Below are positions 151 through 11,566 of a stretch of 11,566 nt of DNA, piece by piece. Where the stretch lies: the UHGV virus genome UHGV-1588268. One strand, given 5' to 3'. Each line of letters opens with the position of its first letter. Within the stretch, counting starts at the first letter, position 1. This DNA comes from a virus. The notes under the pieces were generated by a model. The model was not told the origin of the DNA, ran no database searches, and worked only from the letters and a program-made list of their open reading frames with translations. Position numbers and translations under genes: made by a program.

Positions 151-165
151 TTACCTTAAAGGTAT
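151..165. promoter_or_regulatory. Operator-like palindrome TTACCT-taa-AGGTAt upstream of the integrase gene, nested inside the inverted repeat GACGGTAT (144-151) / ATACCGTC (171-178)
   Basis: Seen in sequence: one mismatch to the TTACCT-N3-AGGTAA motif found in the other promoter regions; overlaps a possible -10 element TATACT (163-168). Confidence 0.4.
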
Positions 166-207: not shown

Positions 208-1458
208 GTGCTTACCGATACAAAATTAAAAAATCTCAAGCCGCAGGACAAACTGTACAAGGTCTCCGATCGTGACGGGCTGTATGTAGCTGTGCTTACG
301 TCAGGCACGGTCTCGTTTCGCTATGACTACCGTATCAACGGTCGCCGCGAAACACTGGTAATCGGGCAGTATGGGCGTGACGGTATCAGCCTGGCAGAAG
401 CGCGAGAAGAACTGATTGCTGCAAAGAAGCTGCTTAAAGCAGGCCAGTCACCGGCTGCGGCTAAACGTGACGGTATCAAAAAGATTCGTGGTGCCGAGAC
501 GTTTGCGGTACATACCGACAGTTATATGAAACACGTCATCCTGGCTGACAGTACCCGCGCAATGAAACAGGCGGTGATCGACCGTGACATACTTCCGGTT
601 CTTGGCAATAAAATGATGGCTGAAATTACCACATCAATGGTTCGTGATTTGTGTGACCGGATTGTCGAACGCGGTGGCCGGGCAACAGCAGTGCAGGCCA
701 GGGAGATCATCAGTAGCGTATACCGTCACGCCAATGACCGTGGTCATGGTTTGTTTAATCCTGCGGCTGACATTAAACCTTCGTCTATCGCCATATTTAA
801 ACCACGAGAGCGAACACTGACACCAGAAGAAATTGGCCTGTTCTTCCGCACGCTGGATGCCATTGGTGCTATGGGCACTATGAAAATGGCTTTAAAACTG
901 GTGCTTATCACTATGGTTCGTAAGGGCGAATTCACCAATGCAACGTGGGATGAAATAGATTTTAAAAAATGGACATGGACAATTCCTCCAGACCGCATGA
1001 AGGGAAGCCGGGCGCACGTTATTTACCTGCCCAAACAGGCACAGGATATATTGGTCGGGTTGCAGATGTGCGCTGGTGGAAGTGAATATCTGGTTCCTGG
1101 TCGTTACAATTTCCGGAAGCCATTATCTAATGCCGCGCTGAACTCTCTGATCGACAGAACGGTGAAAATAATAAATGAAGATGGTGAGCATATTCAGGAC
1201 TTCACTGTACATGATATGCGCCGTACAGCCAGTACGTTGTTGCATGAGGCTGGTTATCCTTCAGACTGGATTGAAAAGGCTCTGGCACATGAGCAGAAAG
1301 GTGTGCGCGCCGTATATAACAAAGCGGAATACGCCAGACAGCGCGCCTACATGTTGCAGCAGTGGGCCGATATGATTGATTCATGGATTGACGGGGAGCA
1401 TACGGATCTGATTCCGTTCTCCCCGTCGAAGTTTGAGAAGTGGATGGCGGGGGAATAA
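208..1458 (+). CDS. int: Tyrosine site-specific integrase, P4/CP4-57-like family
   Basis: 416-aa ORF with GTG start. N-terminus (LTDTKLKNLKPQDKLYKVSDRDGLYVAV...) matches the arm-binding domain typical of P4-family integrases; C-terminus carries H-x-x-R and a candidate catalytic Tyr (HDMRRTAS...VRAVYNKAEY). Family assignment from memory, not a search. Confidence 0.9.
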   Translation: MLTDTKLKNLKPQDKLYKVSDRDGLYVAVLTSGTVSFRYDYRINGRRETLVIGQYGRDGISLAEAREELIAAKKLLKAGQSPAAAKRDGIKKIRGAETFAVHTDSYMKHVILADSTRAMKQAVIDRDILPVLGNKMMAEITTSMVRDLCDRIVERGGRATAVQAREIISSVYRHANDRGHGLFNPAADIKPSSIAIFKPRERTLTPEEIGLFFRTLDAIGAMGTMKMALKLVLITMVRKGEFTNATWDEIDFKKWTWTIPPDRMKGSRAHVIYLPKQAQDILVGLQMCAGGSEYLVPGRYNFRKPLSNAALNSLIDRTVKIINEDGEHIQDFTVHDMRRTASTLLHEAGYPSDWIEKALAHEQKGVRAVYNKAEYARQRAYMLQQWADMIDSWIDGEHTDLIPFSPSKFEKWMAGE

Positions 1459-4934: not shown

Positions 4935-5230
4935 GCCGCTTCCCTCTGCCCATCAATCCGATCCGCCAGATCCCAGCGGGCGATAATTGCCATTGCCTCG
5001 CGCCGGTAGGAATCTATCAGTTCTTCGAACTCAGGGCTGTCTTTAGCAGCCTCCAGCACTTCCTGACGAACGCCTTTGCCTGTTACAACGTCGAAAGTTG
5101 AGGACAGTTGATGAAGTCGGATGCTCTCAATCAGTTCAACTTGTCGGTCATATAGCTGTTCTGACAGGCGGTAGTCCTTGTCGAATGCCAGCATGATTTT
5201 TTGAAGATTTTTCTGCTGATTAACGTTCAT
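4931..5230 (-). CDS. Hypothetical early protein (99 aa) upstream of the exo-recT pair
   Basis: ORF with GGGAGGG ribosome-binding site 6 nt before the ATG at 5230 (MNVNQQKNLQK...). The track's longer version starts at 5245. Coupled to exo via ATGA. No family recognised. Confidence 0.55.
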   Translation of the reverse strand: MNVNQQKNLQKIMLAFDKDYRLSEQLYDRQVELIESIRLHQLSSTFDVVTGKGVRQEVLEAAKDSPEFEELIDSYRREAMAIIARWDLADRIDGQREAA

Positions 5231-5232
5231 TA

Positions 5233-5385
5233 TCAGCCCTCCCATATCTCGTTATCGTTGGCTACATCGCGAGCTTCTTTGCTGACGAAAGCCCACTTAA
5301 TGCCTTCCTGTAAGGTGCGGAACTTCCAGCTCATGAATCCGCATGCAGTAACGCAGTACCAACCGTTGATGATTTTCCACTGCAT
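5233..5385 (-). CDS. Putative small Trp/Cys-rich protein (50 aa), first ORF of the leftward early operon
   Basis: Own translation: MQWKIINGWYCVTACGFMSWKFRTLQEGIKWAFVSKEARDVANDNEIWEG. GAGG ribosome-binding site 9 nt upstream; lies directly downstream of the putative leftward promoter and operators. Confidence 0.35.
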   Translation of the reverse strand: MQWKIINGWYCVTACGFMSWKFRTLQEGIKWAFVSKEARDVANDNEIWEG

Positions 5386-5404
5386 AACTTGTTACCTCGG
5401 TCTG

Positions 5405-5481
5405 TTACCGTTGAGGTAATAATTATGCTTATTTGGTTTGGTGTCAATAGATATGAGTTAAAAAAATTACCCGTAAGGTAA
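5405..5481 (-). promoter_or_regulatory. Putative leftward early promoter with two operator palindromes
   Basis: Minus-strand -35 TTGACA (plus 5443-5448) and an A/T-rich -10 candidate (about 5418-5428), flanked by TTACCg-ttg-AGGTAA (5405-5419) and TTACCc-gta-AGGTAA (5467-5481). Confidence 0.45.
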
Positions 5482-5490
5482 TCTATCTGG

Positions 5491-5518
5491 CAATAAAAAA
5501 GCCGCCATGAGGCGGCTT
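5491..5518 (-). terminator. Rho-independent terminator downstream of the repressor gene
   Basis: 8-bp GC-rich stem AAGCCGCC (5499-5506) / GGCGGCTT (5511-5518), 4-nt loop; on the minus strand the hairpin is followed by a U-run (complement of 5491-5498). Confidence 0.7.
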
Positions 5519-5538
5519 ACTTACTGAAAAATATAGTT

Positions 5539-6123
5539 TTATTGTTTGCTTTTTTCGTTCTGGTTGATGACAAATTCAATGTAACTTTCGATCTTTGCTT
5601 TCTCGGTTTCGGGTAACAATGCGTAGCGTGAGCGGTCATAGTTGATAGTCGCAGGGTCGTGCGGGTGAATCAGTAGTTCATATCCGTGACGCCCGAATGC
5701 GGATGCAACATTCTCCAGGGTGGAAATGGAAACGCTGACCTCATTGTTTAACAGGCGGCTGATTGTCACCTGGGCGACGCCGGATGCGCGGTGAAGTTTT
5801 CCCTGTGTTGAAAGGTCGCGGCTTTCGCTCATCCAGCGTTCCAGATTGTGAGCCGCCAGCTGACCTATATCGCTCGGGCCGACAGGCTGAAAACCCTCCT
5901 GAGAAAGCGAACGATCAATATCAAGCCAGTTACGGGGTTTATTGGCGGCAGCTTCAATTTTTCGTGCAACCTGGTCGCCGATAACCTTCTTGCCAAGAGC
6001 CCAGCGGTTTACCAGATTTGCCTGAGTTCCAAGTTTTTCTGCCATCCGCGTCTGAACACCATTGAATTCACGGTCGATCAAGTCGTTGAGATTTTGCCTG
6101 CGGACGTCCTGGATACTTTTCAT
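5539..6123 (-). CDS. Phage repressor candidate: tandem HTH (XRE/Cro-C1 type) DNA-binding protein, no S24 peptidase domain recognised
   Basis: 194 aa. Two HTH-like segments (QTRMAEKLGTQANLVNRWALGKK and KLHRASGVAQVTISRLLNNEVSVSISTLENVA). Divergent from a Cro-like gene with operator palindromes between them. C-terminal 45 aa show no Ala-Gly/Ser-Lys autocleavage signature. Confidence 0.75.
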   Translation of the reverse strand: MKSIQDVRRQNLNDLIDREFNGVQTRMAEKLGTQANLVNRWALGKKVIGDQVARKIEAAANKPRNWLDIDRSLSQEGFQPVGPSDIGQLAAHNLERWMSESRDLSTQGKLHRASGVAQVTISRLLNNEVSVSISTLENVASAFGRHGYELLIHPHDPATINYDRSRYALLPETEKAKIESYIEFVINQNEKSKQ

Positions 6124-6178
6124 TTTCTGGAAAATCGCCTCATATATGAATCAGTAGATGATTCAATTTAAAGCAATA

Positions 6179-6241
6179 TTACCCAACAGGTAAATGCACC
6201 TCATAGGTAACTATCCTTGATTTTTGTTACCTTATGGGTGA
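6179..6241. promoter_or_regulatory. Divergent immunity-region control region with three operator-like sites
   Basis: Sites TTACCc-aac-AGGTAA (6179-6193), gcACCT-cat-AGGTAA (6196-6210), TTACCT-tat-gGGTgA (6227-6241); candidate rightward -35 TTGATT (6217-6222) and -10 GAATAT (6240-6245) overlap the sites. Confidence 0.5.
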
Positions 6242-6277
6242 ATATTTATTATCTGAAATAAATATCAGGCAATAGCT

Positions 6278-6508
6278 ATGAGCGATAACGGACATTTCGA
6301 TTTCAAAAAGCACTGGCTTGCACTTACTCCGGATGAGCGTGAAGCCTTCGCACAGGAAGCCGGAACGACGAGTCACTATATCCAGACTCACTTAACAGGC
6401 AAGCGCAAAATGCCAGGTAAGGTATTGATGAATGGGCTTTTTAAAGCCTGTAAAACAAGACAATGGCTGCGCTCAAAAGCAGAACTGGCATACTTCTTCT
6501 ACTCATGA
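6278..6508 (+). CDS. Cro/YdaS-like small HTH regulator
   Basis: 76 aa, divergent from the repressor; EAFAQEAGTTSHYIQTHLTGKRKMP resembles the HTH and Gly-Lys-Arg turn of Cro/YdaS-family proteins. Confidence 0.65.
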   Translation: MSDNGHFDFKKHWLALTPDEREAFAQEAGTTSHYIQTHLTGKRKMPGKVLMNGLFKACKTRQWLRSKAELAYFFYS

Positions 6509-6530
6509 TATCCAGCTACAACCCTCTGTA

Positions 6531-6555
6531 GACCGCCACCCGGCGGTCTTTTCAT
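6531..6555 (+). terminator. Rho-independent terminator-like hairpin downstream of the cro-like gene
   Basis: Stem GACCGCC (6531-6537) / GGCGGTC (6542-6548), loop ACCC, then TTTTCAT. Short T-tract, so moderate confidence. Confidence 0.5.
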
Positions 6556-6563
6556 ATCTATTC

Positions 6564-6578
6564 GTACCTCAAAGGTAA
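6564..6578. promoter_or_regulatory. Operator palindrome gTACCT-caa-AGGTAA between the cro terminator and the replication genes
   Basis: Seen in sequence; same motif family as the immunity-region sites. TTGATCAA (6592-6599) just downstream could be a -35 element. Confidence 0.45.
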
Positions 6579-6656
6579 TAAAAAACCAAATCTGGTTGAT
6601 CAAATTTTCCAATTGTGCAAAATAGCCAATATCAATAACAAAAAGGGGCGGAAAAA

Positions 6657-6869
6657 TTGAAGATAGTAACCAGAATGGAGGCCGCAAAAGCCGGGTTAAA
6701 TCGCTATTTCACAGGAAAGCGGTGCCGTCACGGCCATCTCTCTGAAAGGTATGTTCTGAACGGAACATGTGTTGAATGTGCAATGAATAGCGCCAACCGC
6801 CATCGTAATGAATTTGCTTGTGCACTAAAGAGTGCAAGAGGGGAAACCTATGGCAAGCAGCTGGATTAA
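6657..6869 (+). CDS. Small Zn-ribbon-like protein (70 aa) in the cII position
   Basis: ORF with TTG start and AAGGGG ribosome-binding site (alternative ATG at 6675). Cys/His pattern C-x-H-x-H...C-x-x-C (GKRCRHGHLSERYVLNGTCVEC). Overlaps the start of the O-like gene. No family recognised. Confidence 0.5.
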   Translation: MKIVTRMEAAKAGLNRYFTGKRCRHGHLSERYVLNGTCVECAMNSANRHRNEFACALKSARGETYGKQLD

Positions 6870-7674
6870 GGTTGAAGTTATCACTCCTGATAAACCTGAA
6901 ATTTTTCAGATAGCAGAAATTCTGGGTATTGATCCAGATGCTGTTCTTGGAAAGCTGGTTCGTATATGGGCATGGGCTGACCAGCAAACAATAGACGGTA
7001 ACGCTGGCAGCGTTACAAAAGGAGTACTTGATAGACTCGCTTTTATTACAGGATTTGCTGACGCCCTCATTAGCGTCGGATGGCTTGCTTATCATGACGG
7101 CAAACTAATTCTTCCAAACTTTGAGCGACATAATGGAGAATCATCGAAAAAACGTGCACTTACGAATAGAAGAGTGGCAGAGCATCGAAAACGAGTAACG
7201 CAAAAAGTAACGCCAACAGCGTTACAAAAGGAGTTACCAGAGGAAGAGGAAGATATATATAAAACCCCACACATAGCGCACGTGCGCGAGGGTGCTCCGA
7301 CCAGTGAAGCGAACAGTACGCCGTTGCAGGTGGCAGAACCTGAATTTCTGGATGGCCTGAGTGAACCCATCGGGAAATTTCCGATGACAGATGGCTGGCT
7401 ACCGTCGCCAGATTTTCGGTGGCGTGCTGCGCTGTGGGGAACGGCCCTGCCGGAACCGGAATTTACACCTGCTGAACTTGCTGCATTCCGGGATTACTGG
7501 ATGGCTGAGGGCAAAGTGTTCACGCAGGTTCAGTGGGAACAAAAATTCGCCAGGCACGTAAATCATATCAGGGGAAAATCAAAAAATGCCGGGAAAAGCG
7601 ATGAGCTTGACTGGAATAACACTGACTGGATAGAAGGGGTGTGGGATGAAATCAACTCCAGAACTTCTCAATGA
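6850..7674 (+). CDS. Replication initiator, O-like: N-terminal phage replisome-organizer domain plus C-terminal DnaT-like domain
   Basis: N-terminus MASSWIKVEV...IWAWADQ fits the phage replisome-organizer N-domain. C-terminus (GKFPMTDGWLPSPDFRWRAALWGTALPEPEFTPAELAAFRDYWMAEGKVFTQVQWEQKFARHV) aligns closely with E. coli DnaT as I remember it. AGAGGGGA ribosome-binding site. Confidence 0.8.
   Translation: MASSWIKVEVITPDKPEIFQIAEILGIDPDAVLGKLVRIWAWADQQTIDGNAGSVTKGVLDRLAFITGFADALISVGWLAYHDGKLILPNFERHNGESSKKRALTNRRVAEHRKRVTQKVTPTALQKELPEEEEDIYKTPHIAHVREGAPTSEANSTPLQVAEPEFLDGLSEPIGKFPMTDGWLPSPDFRWRAALWGTALPEPEFTPAELAAFRDYWMAEGKVFTQVQWEQKFARHVNHIRGKSKNAGKSDELDWNNTDWIEGVWDEINSRTSQ
6998..7234. repeat. 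Iteron-like repeats inside the O-like gene (candidate origin): GTAACGC-N5-GCGTTAC-AAAAGGAGT twice
   Basis: Copy 1 at 6998-7025, copy 2 at 7207-7234, plus an extra GTAACGC at 7195-7201 and CATCGAAAA(A)ACG direct repeats at 7143-7196. The two copies fall in different reading frames of the O-like gene. An A/T-rich tract follows at 7243-7262. Confidence 0.4.
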
Positions 7675-8422
7675 GTACGATCGCTTACGTGAGCATGGTG
7701 TTGCTGTGCATGAAGAGCGGCGTGACAGCAATGGCAAAAAGGAGCAGGTTGCTAGAATTTTCAATGAACTATTTGTCCAGTTACAGGCTGCATTTCCTGC
7801 AAGCGTTTCGACCATAAGGGAGCAGAACAAACTTAATGAATTCCGTAAGCAATGGATGCTTGCGTTTCTGGAGAATGGGATCACTACAATGGAACAGGTT
7901 AACGCTGGTATGCGCCACGCCCGCGCCAGTGAATCTCCGTTCTGGCCGTCGCCAGGGCAATTCATCAAGTGGTGCAAAGACAGCAAGATGGTTCTTGGCG
8001 TCACCATTGACGATGTGATGGCGGAGTTTCACCGGTACAGCAAGGAAAAAAGTTTATATCCTGGTGGTCCCGAAAGATTCCCGTGGCGGCATCCGGTTAT
8101 GTACTGGGTCGTATGTGATACCCGTCGTGCAATGTATCAGCGCCAGCTTAGCGAGAGTGAGGTTGAGAAACACGCGCGCAGGCTGCTCGATGATTGGGCG
8201 AAAAAGGTGGCTTCCGGACAGCAGATACCCGATCCGGTGATCAGCATACAGGCAAAGCCAGAGCCCATGAGTACACCTCCGGACACAGGGAGAGACGTTT
8301 ACCATCCACCAGGGCGAAGTTTCGGGTGCATGCCTAACGCCGCCACCCTTTGGGGAATAACACCGGCGCAGTGGCTGATGGAGGAATACAGGCGGGGAAA
8401 GGCGGCAGGATTTATCAAGTAA
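7646..8422 (+). CDS. Replication protein P-like (DnaB helicase loader)
   Basis: 258 aa. QLQAAFPASVSTIREQNKLNEFRKQWMLAFLENGITTMEQVNAGMRHAR...FWPSPGQFIKWC matches lambda P (ATFPASL...WVLAFRENGITTMEQVNAGMRVAR...FLPSPGQFVAWC) as I remember it. Overlaps the O-like gene end; AAGGGG ribosome-binding site. Confidence 0.88.
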   Translation: MKSTPELLNEYDRLREHGVAVHEERRDSNGKKEQVARIFNELFVQLQAAFPASVSTIREQNKLNEFRKQWMLAFLENGITTMEQVNAGMRHARASESPFWPSPGQFIKWCKDSKMVLGVTIDDVMAEFHRYSKEKSLYPGGPERFPWRHPVMYWVVCDTRRAMYQRQLSESEVEKHARRLLDDWAKKVASGQQIPDPVISIQAKPEPMSTPPDTGRDVYHPPGRSFGCMPNAATLWGITPAQWLMEEYRRGKAAGFIK

Positions 8423-8459
8423 TACCAGCGCGATAGCGCATTTTTTTACGCCTCGATAA

Positions 8460-8536
8460 TTACCTGTTAGGTAACAAAATATTATAAACTCTATTGATTT
8501 CATGTCTTATGTGGTTTTTAATTACCTCAGAGGTAA
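8460..8536. promoter_or_regulatory. Two perfect operator palindromes flanking a putative promoter upstream of the DUF1064-like gene
   Basis: TTACCT-gtt-AGGTAA (8460-8474) and TTACCT-cag-AGGTAA (8522-8536), the latter ending 3 nt before the ATG and containing the GAGG Shine-Dalgarno; TTGATT -35 candidate at 8494-8499. Confidence 0.5.
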
Positions 8537-8539
8537 ATC

Positions 8540-8884
8540 ATGAGAAAACAGATACAGGCTCTTGGTCGACTCAAAACAGGCCAGATGAACAAAACTGAAT
8601 CTGCGTATTGCCAGCACCTTGAGCTGCGTAAACGTGCAGGGGAAATCGCCTGGTATCGATTCGAGGGTATCAAGCTGCGGTTAGCTGACAACACGTTCTA
8701 TACGCCAGATTTCGCTGTGATGCTCGCCACCGGAGAGATGGAACTGCACGAAGTGAAAGGTTTCTGGACCGACGACGCCAGGGTGAAAACCAAAGTCGCC
8801 GCAGATCAGTATCCGTTCCGAATCATCGGGGTAACGGTTAAACCAAAGAAAGCAGGTGGTGGCTGGAACATCGAAGAGTTCTGA
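8540..8884 (+). CDS. DUF1064-like phage protein with PD-(D/E)xK nuclease signature
   Basis: 114 aa. YTPDFAV...ELHEVKG gives a D...E-x-K arrangement; size and context (after the replication genes) match DUF1064-type proteins. Family from memory. Confidence 0.7.
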   Translation: MRKQIQALGRLKTGQMNKTESAYCQHLELRKRAGEIAWYRFEGIKLRLADNTFYTPDFAVMLATGEMELHEVKGFWTDDARVKTKVAADQYPFRIIGVTVKPKKAGGGWNIEEF

Positions 8885-8945
8885 ATCGACGATCTTTTTA
8901 GTTATCAATGTAATCAATAAGTTATGTGGATAAGCGAGGGTAAAG

Positions 8946-9593
8946 ATGGAAAGTAATATCAAAGGGTTAGTTGCCGCCGGGCATGAGATGGCTTCGGAAC
9001 TGAAAGCAGAATGTGGTGCCGTTGATATGCGCAGTGTGGCAAAGCTGATCAGCGATTTGGCAACGCAACTGGAAGTGCAACTGGTGCGTGCTAATGCGCT
9101 GGCCGAAGACCAGCAGAAAGCGATTGAGTCAATTAAGCAGGCTGATGCGGCTGTTAAGTTGGCACACGAGAAGTTTTCGGCGTTGGCGGCGGAGAATGCG
9201 CTGGCTCGTAAGGCAGTTCAGGCATTCTGCGATGTTGTTGGCGACAACACCGAGGTTATCGCTGAGGAGGTTGGGCGAGATGGCGTTCTGGTTATTTTGG
9301 AGGCCATGAAGGCAACAGGAAATATGCCAGCCACCGATGCTTTTCTGGCTGTAGTGCGTGCGGAGGCACGCAACGAGGGGATTAACTATACCGCAAGCCG
9401 TCTTGCTGCTGCTTTCAACCACGGATTTATCAATAAGTCTTTACGTGAAGTTTTCGACGTTACGCGCATGATTCTGTCAGCGAAAGAAGAGTTGGCTAAT
9501 GAACCGCATCCGATTGATGGCCTGTCTGGTGAATATGCGGAAAAATCCCTAGAAGAATGGGCGGAACAGATTCGCAAAGGAGGCAACCAGTGA
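8946..9593 (+). CDS. Hypothetical alpha-helical/coiled-coil protein (215 aa)
   Basis: ORF with GAGGG ribosome-binding site. Stop overlaps the next start as GTGA. Ala/Glu/Leu-rich, predicted helical. No family recognised. Confidence 0.6.
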   Translation: MESNIKGLVAAGHEMASELKAECGAVDMRSVAKLISDLATQLEVQLVRANALAEDQQKAIESIKQADAAVKLAHEKFSALAAENALARKAVQAFCDVVGDNTEVIAEEVGRDGVLVILEAMKATGNMPATDAFLAVVRAEARNEGINYTASRLAAAFNHGFINKSLREVFDVTRMILSAKEELANEPHPIDGLSGEYAEKSLEEWAEQIRKGGNQ

Positions 9594-11161: not shown

Positions 11162-11566
11162 ATGACCACTATAACCGATAAGAAACAGTATCCAGGCGAG
11201 CAATATCTTAATGAGCTGATCACCAACATAGAGTTTGCTGCAAGGGCACCAGTTGAAGTCGTGAGAGCAATGGCAGCAGAGCTACAGAAGCGGCGCGAAG
11301 CTGATAGTGCCGAACCTGCAAGTAATCATGAAGAGTTGCCGCTTGATTATCTCCAAGGTCAAAAAGATGGTCTTGAATGGGCTGCGCAGCTTGCAGAAGC
11401 AAATCACCCACAAACTGGCGACTGGCTTTACGATGACCAGCTGGAGCTGGCTAAAGCTATCAGAAAAGGTCCTGACATGCCCGAATTCGATGGACCAACT
11501 CCGGTAACTCTGGATGGTTGGATAAGCTGTAGTGAGCGAATGCCCGCTCAAGATGATTGGATTTTA
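11162..11566 (+). CDS. Hypothetical protein, 5' partial view (runs past the window end)
   Basis: Open frame from ATG 11162 with AAGGAGAG ribosome-binding site and no stop to the window edge (135 codons; MTTITDKKQYPGEQYLNELI...GWISCSERMPAQDDWIL). The C-terminal W...ERMP segment is faintly reminiscent of DUF551-type prophage proteins; weak. Confidence 0.5.
   Translation, partial: MTTITDKKQYPGEQYLNELITNIEFAARAPVEVVRAMAAELQKRREADSAEPASNHEELPLDYLQGQKDGLEWAAQLAEANHPQTGDWLYDDQLELAKAIRKGPDMPEFDGPTPVTLDGWISCSERMPAQDDWIL

Follow-up and report, generated by a model that had tools for sequence, protein, structure and literature searches.

Which protein reads the short palindrome that recurs at the promoters of a phage early region, and does it act there in the manner of the lambda immunity switch? 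The question is raised by UHGV virus genome UHGV-1588268, a stretch of 11,566 nucleotides (hereafter the window, meaning this whole stretch), which makes up the early region of a prophage beside guaA that belongs to Uetakevirus (phiV10/epsilon15-like). An earlier note had described a 15-bp palindrome, TTACCT-N3-AGGTAA, with three copies between a repressor gene and a divergent cro-like gene and two copies at the leftward promoter, and had likened the arrangement to OL and OR of phage lambda. Their enrichment, placement and conservation, together with protein homology, indicate that the palindromes are very probably repressor operators, and the protein that acts on them would be, with a probability of about 75%, the prophage repressor Rep, encoded by the rep gene (5539-6123, minus strand). 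We infer Rep to be the binder from the enrichment and placement of the sites, the conservation footprint over their half-sites, the homology of Rep, the conservation of its N-terminal domain (NTD), the co-occurrence of motif and Rep, the repressor labels in the epsilon15 record, the spacing of the sites, the modularity of a promoter named P3 and the LexA box in front of the gene for the antirepressor Ant.

Enrichment of the Palindromic Core in the Window

All five sites of the earlier note lie where it had placed them, three between the divergent genes and two at the leftward promoter, but none is an exact copy of TTACCT-N3-AGGTAA (1, 1, 1, 2 and 2 mismatches, from left to right). The conserved element is instead the 10-position core TTACC-N5-GGTAA, consisting of two half-sites one helical turn apart. 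The only exact copies of the longer palindrome in the window, at 8460-8474 and 8522-8536, had not been listed, and neither had two further sites with one mismatch each, at 6564-6578 and 151-165. When up to two mismatches are allowed, the palindrome matches the window 10 times against 0.23 expected, and none of 200 dinucleotide-preserving shuffles reached 10. The exact core occurs 5 times against 0.00 in 100 shuffles, and the core with up to one mismatch 8 times against 0.16 expected. The chance estimate given earlier, 11566/4^12, is valid for exact sites only, but the non-random recurrence that it was meant to support is borne out by the shuffles. Non-coding DNA, roughly 9% of the window by our estimate, contains all nine credible sites. 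The tenth match (11347-11361) has two core mismatches, lies inside long open reading frames and was set aside as a probable chance occurrence.

Conservation of the Core among Uetakevirus Genomes

The operator sequence is not specific to one phage, as the earlier wording of a different operator sequence had implied, but has a core common to all 13 Uetakevirus-type genomes and prophages checked. The core is found far more often in whole genomes of relatives than in shuffled sequence: the whole genomes of phiV10, SPC32H, Tyrion, BUCT711 and BUCT554 hold 8-10 exact copies each, compared with 0.00-0.02 expected, the epsilon15 genome holds 11, and all exact copies are intergenic. Nor is the motif confined to a switch of the OL/OR type, since it is also found past the cro terminator, at P3, before int and at late operons. 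The corresponding places in these genomes are those before terS, the lysis cassette and int, the gap between ant and the tail-fibre gene, a pair at the leftward promoter PL, a triple between rep and the cro-like gene, and a pair at P3; the copy of the head operon stands about 90 bp before its first gene. The lysis, int and switch-c sites of phiV10 and SPC32H, for example, have one core mismatch, and phages of the phiV10 group have an extra single site past the cro terminator.

Alignments of PL, the switch region and P3 from seven phages show a clear footprint, in which 65 of 70 half-site columns are invariant, compared with 5 of 35 columns of the central spacers and 106 of 322 other intergenic columns. 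The centres of the paired sites at PL and P3 are 62 bp apart in 22 of 26 pairs and 61-63 bp apart in the rest, and the intervening sequence varies. A scan of one genome per species has added six further prophages with sites at the same offsets from the rep start, namely those of Superficieibacter, Candidatus Erwinia dacicola, Klebsiella, Scandinavium and two Citrobacter species, and their Rep proteins have the recognition helix NLVNRW, or TLVNRW in Scandinavium. Five distant relatives of the Rep NTD with another recognition helix have no exact core match, and in such relatives from Paraburkholderia, Hydrogenovibrio and Thiomicrospira no recurring palindrome was found, a single TAGCAAATTGGCTA-like element standing upstream in the last four. 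These relatives give a hint of covariation between recognition helix and operator, with which they are consistent, although as a test they are too thin and are confounded by phylogeny.

The half-sites differ between phage groups at position 6. The phiV10 group, with which the window shares its Rep type, prefers T, and A is found there in 1 of 16 half-sites of phiV10, 1 of 18 of Tyrion and 1 of 16 of BUCT554; in the epsilon15/SPC32H group A and T are about equally frequent and the centre is AT-rich. This contrast could mark a partial difference in specificity between the two groups.

The GenBank record of epsilon15 (AY150271.2) labels seven copies of ATTACC-N5-GGTAAT as protein_bind features named 'repressor', located before terS, before the head operon, in the gap between ant and the tailspike gene, at PL (three copies) and at the equivalent of P3. 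As far as checked, these labels are predictions, and the record leaves the three rep-cro sites and the proximal P3 site unannotated, though they are present. Repressor-site features are lacking from the record of phiV10 and from the RefSeq annotations of E. coli, and a literature search, from which the primary SPC32H and epsilon15 genome papers were missing, found no paper that defines these operators.

Rep and Its Antirepressor

The assignment of 5539-6123 to a prophage repressor is supported by its product, which is 99.5% identical to ORF21 of phage ZX5, a protein that represses in vivo: its overexpression abolishes free phage and lowers the holin and endolysin mRNA levels by more than 99.9% (PMC9782041). 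A phmmer search of the PDB aligned residues 1-190 of Rep (194 amino acids) with residues 2-197 of SPC32H Rep (5D50_A) at 43% identity and an E-value of 3.5e-42, identifying it by sequence as a full-length homologue of the SPC32H-type repressor. SPC32H Rep, which a LexA-controlled antirepressor inactivates, is a tetramer that binds palindromic DNA (PMC9638917). Its N-terminal domain binds DNA, a second domain mediates dimerisation, and the tetramerisation domain is at the same time the one to which Ant binds (PMC9986798). The fold of the last domain is named for its role in DNA looping by Rco, the repressor of pLS20, and Phe187 and Phe190 form the hydrophobic tetramer interface of SPC32H Rep (PMC9986798); the corresponding residues of the window protein are Y181, a conservative change, and F184, which is invariant (alignment A1). 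The repression mechanism of SPC32H Rep 'has not been extensively characterized', according to the same structural paper of 2023 (PMC9986798).

When the domain roles of SPC32H Rep as given in PMC9986798 are transferred, the window protein is predicted to have a helix-turn-helix (HTH) DNA-binding domain at the N-terminus, a dimerisation domain in the middle whose fold is HTH_3-like and, at the C-terminus, a segment for tetramerisation and Ant binding. A Pfam search of Rep found no Peptidase_S24 domain and only domains of the HTH type, HTH_3 at residues 106-147 (significant) and a YdaS-like domain at 21-61 (below threshold). Of the two HTH-like regions, the one with the significant match falls in the dimerisation domain and not in the DNA-binding domain; the placing of DNA binding in the C-terminal HTH by the ZX5 paper (PMC9782041) is probably mistaken. 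Residues 1-72 are the best conserved part of Rep (between the window and SPC32H, identity is 53% there and 34% in the middle domain). The recognition helix NLVNRW does not vary, and neither does the half-site, a correspondence which argues for Rep as the binder.

The antirepressor ORF4 of ZX5 has been examined by overexpression (PMC9782041). The Combat2C1 prophage, 99.7% identical over window positions 5000-9000, encodes an Ant homologue of 85 amino acids outside the region equivalent to the window, and a perfect LexA box (CTGTATAAATATACAG) stands 37 bp upstream of its ant gene (box from 6397, ATG at 6434). Diversification of immunity through the Rep C-terminus together with Ant was considered and rejected: Ant is about 85% identical by eye between phiV10 and SPC32H, and Rep only 43%.

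Arrangement of the Operators at the Early Promoters

The PL core promoter (5419..5447, minus strand) is formed by a -35 hexamer TTGACA (5447-5442), a 17-bp spacer and a -10 hexamer AATTAT (5424-5419), which together match the consensus at 10 of 12 positions; CTATTGAC and ATTAT are invariant in the alignment of seven phages (A3). The proximal operator (TTACCGTTGAGGTAA, 5405..5419) begins at the final -10 base and is centred on the predicted transcription start, and its half-site columns are invariant in the same alignment. The distal operator (TTACCCGTAAGGTAA, 5467..5481) lies 19 bp upstream of the -35 hexamer and 62 bp from the proximal one, centre to centre. Both have an exact core and one mismatch to the longer palindrome. 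The earlier note had both sites overlapping the -35 and -10 elements; this is true of the proximal site, which shares one -10 base and covers the predicted start, but the distal site touches neither hexamer. An intrinsic terminator of rep (5499..5518, minus strand), also annotated in phiV10, separates rep from PL. In the epsilon15/SPC32H group a third operator stands on the PL side, immediately ahead of the first gene and 76 bp downstream of the proximal operator (33528-33542 in L003, 32479-32493 in epsilon15, 4794-4808 in L013 and L015), where the window has a half-site only. The Shine-Dalgarno sequence of the first leftward gene (5393-5397, minus strand) coincides with a separate AGGTAA half-site, which can pair with the proximal operator to form a 13-bp hairpin (5389-5422).

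The gap that separates rep from the cro-like gene contains a graded set of three sites. Site a (TTACCCAACAGGTAA, 6179..6193), the nearest to rep, has an exact core with one mismatch to the longer palindrome and lies 55 bp from the rep ATG, and its offset from that ATG (-70) is the same in the six further prophages. Site b (GCACCTCATAGGTAA, 6196..6210) has two mismatches and combines one perfect half-site with a left one that matches at 3 of 5 positions (GCACC). Site c (TTACCTTATGGGTGA, 6227..6241) also has two mismatches, its right half being GGTGA. The centres are 17 bp (a-b) and 31 bp (b-c) apart. The GCACC defect of site b is kept in the window, phiV10, Tyrion and BUCT554, and the epsilon15/SPC32H/BUCT711 group has TTACC at this position. 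Within each phage group the imperfections of both site b and site c are preserved, which points to affinity differences under selection. The PR region (6217..6252, plus strand) contains the hexamer TTGATT (6217-6222), invariant in seven phages, and the candidate -10 hexamers GAATAT/AATATT (6240-6246) and TATTAT (6247-6252). If TTGATT is the -35 element, as is likely, site c falls within the core promoter, between or over its two hexamers, and site b is situated immediately upstream.

P3 repeats the layout of PL exactly: an operator, 19 bp, a -35 hexamer, 17 bp and a -10 hexamer that overlaps a second operator. As read from the sequence, the core promoter (8494..8522, plus strand) consists of TTGATT (8494-8499) and TTTAAT (8517-8522). 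The distal operator (TTACCTGTTAGGTAA, 8460..8474) and the proximal one (TTACCTCAGAGGTAA, 8522..8536), again 62 bp apart between centres, are both exact copies of TTACCT-N3-AGGTAA, and CTATTGA and AAT are invariant in the P3 alignment (A5). A putative terminator, annotated in phiV10, precedes P3. The block of terminator, operators and promoter (window 8423-8539) stands in Tyrion and epsilon15 before a gene for a RusA-type Holliday junction resolvase and not before the DUF1064 gene of the window (8540..8884, plus strand, assigned by annotation and domain match, with accessory genes beyond), and DUF1064 homologues in phages absent from the Rep matches lack it. By this comparison the block acts as a portable module. 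The ATG at 8540 takes its Shine-Dalgarno sequence, GAGGTAA, from the right half of the proximal operator, so that the leader is only about 10 nt long.

Two further early sites are single. An intrinsic terminator after the cro-like gene (6530..6549, plus strand; also annotated in phiV10) is followed by an operator (GTACCTCAAAGGTAA, 6564..6578) 17 bp upstream of a candidate promoter of the replication operon, P2 (6596..6624, plus strand; TTGATC, 17 bp, TGcAAAATA). P2 is read from the sequence and falls below the promoter-scan threshold; the right half-site GGTAA of this operator and the TTGATC hexamer are kept in all seven phages. The operator-like site TTACCTTAAAGGTAT (151..165), with one core mismatch, ends 43 bp before the start of int (208), within a larger inverted repeat GACGGTA...TACCGTC. 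It is shared with phiV10, SPC32H, Tyrion and BUCT554, but the entire attP-int region is conserved, so that the conservation of this site weighs little alone.

A Model for Repression by Rep

The site geometry fits a tetramer with two DNA-binding heads. In a lysogen, Rep would shut off several promoters directly. At PL and P3, the sites centred at about +1 and -62 would bracket the -35 and -10 elements six helical turns apart, and one tetramer would probably bridge each pair, so that the promoter would sit within a short stretch of bent or looped DNA. At PR, site c would occupy the core promoter and site b, 31 bp or three turns upstream, would lie in helical phase with it, so that the two sites flank the -35 element. 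Site a, the best of the switch sites, is placed where it could mediate autoregulation of rep. The replication-operon promoter and int would probably be repressed as well, through their single sites. Induction would proceed through the LexA-controlled antirepressor Ant and not by RecA-mediated cleavage. Since the same motif stands before the late operons, Rep appears to gate most transcription units directly and not through an antitermination cascade, a contrast with lambda drawn with no systematic search for antiterminator genes.

Several points weigh against this model. Bridging is suggested only by the spacing of the sites and the published oligomeric state. Conservation alone cannot name the binder, since the cro-like HTH protein equals the Rep NTD in its degree of conservation. 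All genomes that carry the motif belong to one phage lineage, and their common descent confounds the co-occurrence of the motif with Rep. A promoter for repressor maintenance (PRM) was sought in the rep-cro gap, but the two phage groups have different candidate hexamers and none was assigned. Finally, the single sites of the late promoters lie far upstream (roughly -50 to -70), from where repression is hard to explain. A hidden second site 62 bp downstream of them was looked for and rejected as inconsistent, GGTAA being in register at the head operon only; at the tail-fibre and lysis promoters a GGTAA half-site lies about 50 and 53 bp downstream of the single operator, respectively.

Alternative Explanations for the Palindromes

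The cro-like gene (6278-6508, plus strand; 76 amino acids) is divergent from rep, as the earlier note had described, and encodes a small HTH protein, as judged by its match to PHROG 35 'transcriptional repressor' (E-value 5.6e-13) and by an AlphaFold 2 model predicting a five-helix HTH fold (predicted local distance difference test score 81.6). This protein might bind the palindromes instead of Rep, turning down the early promoters and rep during lytic growth, or both might use them, in the way that CI and Cro of lambda both use OR. The cro-like protein is 58-84% identical across the genus (alignment A2), its HTH segment AGTTSHYIQ.HLT is as invariant as the half-sites, and three graded switch sites resemble a switch operated by two proteins. 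However, the nearest PDB folds of the model, YdaS-NTD and the 434 repressor DNA-binding domain, are statistically non-significant matches (best E-value about 1), the paired 62-bp geometry suits a two-headed protein better than a small dimer, the depositors of epsilon15 gave the sites to the repressor and not to Cro, and the literature credits Rep with palindrome binding (PMC9638917). Binding by the cro-like protein in place of Rep is therefore improbable, though the two proteins may share the sites. The element TATGTGGTT is an example of a different sequence that the cro-like protein might bind.

A strict lambda-type switch, with a CI-like repressor confined to OL and a three-site OR, and with the remaining genes controlled indirectly by a cascade, is about as improbable. 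The likeness drawn in the earlier note holds for the divergent rep and cro-like genes, the three unequal sites between them, one of which overlaps PR, and the presence of sites at PL. It fails for the repressor family, the layout of PL and the number of operators. Rep lacks an S24 peptidase domain and is a homologue of an Ant-controlled tetramer, so that both its family and its route of induction are unrelated to those of CI. At PL two sites flank the promoter at a distance of 62 bp instead of the three adjacent ones of lambda OL, and the 15-bp sites of the switch are spaced by 17 and 31 bp between centres, compared with 23-24 bp in lambda. Repressor control in lambda is limited to PL and PR, and antitermination reaches the delayed genes, whereas equal or better sites are found here at P3, P2 and before int, terS, the head operon, the tail-fibre gene and the lysis cassette, and the terminators after cro and before P3 are each followed by a separate promoter with its own operator.

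Another conserved factor, such as a host protein or a phage activator working at most phage promoters, would account for a motif that stands before late as well as early operons, often well upstream of the -10 element, and that has the same core whether the phage comes from Escherichia, Salmonella, Klebsiella, Enterobacter or another genus. This is very unlikely, because the copies at PL and P3 cover the start of near-consensus promoters, the position of a repressor and not of an activator, and because the motif tracks the Rep-bearing lineage. To our knowledge, no enterobacterial regulator has the consensus TTACC-N5-GGTAA. Duplication of promoter cassettes with an unselected palindrome, which the common layout of PL and P3 might suggest if they are paralogous, or chance recurrence, is effectively refuted, since only the half-sites and hexamers are kept between PL and P3 and across phages while the spacers differ, and no shuffle came near the observed counts.

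Comparison with Other Repressor Systems

Repression by Rep would not constitute a new kind of system: the repressor family is structurally characterised and the motif is annotated in epsilon15. The closest relative is the Rep/Ant system of SPC32H (PDB 5D50 and 5D4Z; Kim and Ryu 2013; Kim et al. 2016), with which the window shares a full-length Rep match, the three-part architecture, the lack of a cleavage domain, the same core motif at the same promoters and, through the near-identical Combat2C1 prophage, an Ant homologue with a LexA box. The differences lie in the host, in 57% sequence divergence of Rep, in the degenerate middle switch site (GCACC) of the window and in the third PL site and the A/T at position 6 of SPC32H. 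Epsilon15 has the same element in the form of a 17-bp ATTACC-N5-GGTAAT, labelled there as a repressor site.

Phage P1 C1 is a single repressor with many dispersed operators, controlled by an antirepressor instead of cleavage. The window resembles this system in the dispersal of operators over many transcription units and in antirepressor control, but P1 operators are asymmetric 17-mers and C1 is unrelated to Rep, whereas the sites here are palindromes, some of them in rigid pairs. Rco of pLS20, which is also of the TetDloop type (PMC9986798), shares the N-terminal HTH, the C-terminal tetramerisation and the antirepressor logic, and the paired operators described here suggest, by their arrangement, one tetramer on two sites. 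Rco loops longer distances with several tetramers, compared with 62 and 31 bp here, where looping by Rep would be the counterpart.

Prophage Setting and Prevalence

The window opens with the 3' end of guaA, and its bases 1-17 (attgagtgggaatgatt) are identical to the attP/attB core given for phage ZX5 at the guaA 3' end, so that the start of the window can be taken as the attL junction of the prophage. Window positions 5000-9000 are 99.7% identical to sequences in complete Escherichia coli chromosomes, and the matches in the phage collection are the Uetakevirus phages ZX5, HEMP4, TL-2011b and phiV10, at 96-98% identity. According to the annotation of the matching records, int (208-1458, plus strand) is followed by a leftward early operon (5385 down to 1462, minus strand) that contains, besides its first gene of 50 amino acids (5233..5385, minus strand; PHROG 898), a 100-amino-acid gene and genes for a YqaJ-type exonuclease, RecT, AlpA, PerC, an MT-A70 methylase and DUF1382. 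On the other side of rep, the cro-like gene is followed by a 70-amino-acid gene and then by DnaT-like and P-like replication genes.

Of 5,426 complete E. coli genomes, 537 carry rep at 95% identity or higher, among them sequence type 131 (ST131) and avian pathogenic E. coli (APEC) O1. A megablast search of rep against these complete genomes found no divergent allele, and rep represents a single immunity type in about 10% of them. The operator map bears in this way on how one of the commonest E. coli prophages stays silent, and most records of the phiV10-like phage group lack these operator features. The rigid 62-bp bracket, the conserved graded triple, the invariance of the core across eight host genera and the prevalence of the prophage lend the findings some interest. 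The brackets at two promoters and the 17/31-bp switch yield testable predictions of how a two-headed tetramer acts at promoters. Given that neither the operator core nor the recognition helix varies, cross-repression could be largely possible among the Uetakeviruses of eight enterobacterial genera, and if so their immunity would be unlike the highly diversified immunities of lambdoid phages. A wider role for Rep as a genome-wide gatekeeper, in which about nine transcription units have their own operators, one tetramer clamps PL and P3 at a fixed 62 bp and cross-repression is broad among Uetakeviruses, is a tentative and rather doubtful extension.

Further Recurrent Elements and Sites

At P3, P2, PL (antisense) and the promoters of the head operon, tail-fibre gene and lysis genes, a second recurrent element, approximately yWTAT(G/A/C)TGGTT, accompanies the operators at a distance of 12-41 nt (window 8506-8516, 6587-6597 and 5428-5438; phiV10 about 3308, 20921 and 24739), and none was found in the rep-cro gap. 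In phiV10 the loose pattern ATNTGGTT has 21 matches compared with about 5 in shuffles, many of the matches being in coding DNA. A second regulator could bind at this element.

In phiV10 (87-119) and in the RefSeq prophage L001 (12274-12288), the 5' end of terS as annotated contains two adjacent operator-like sites, and the homologous sites of SPC32H and epsilon15 lie upstream of the terS start. The terS start of the E. coli phages has thus probably been annotated about 80 nt too early. The accessory region of Combat2C1, between the tail fibre/ant and structural genes, carries BRO-N and YafO-type toxin genes and has three core sites (7739-7753, 7864-7878 and 8911-8925), two of them exact and one with one mismatch, by which these cargo genes may also be under the control of Rep.

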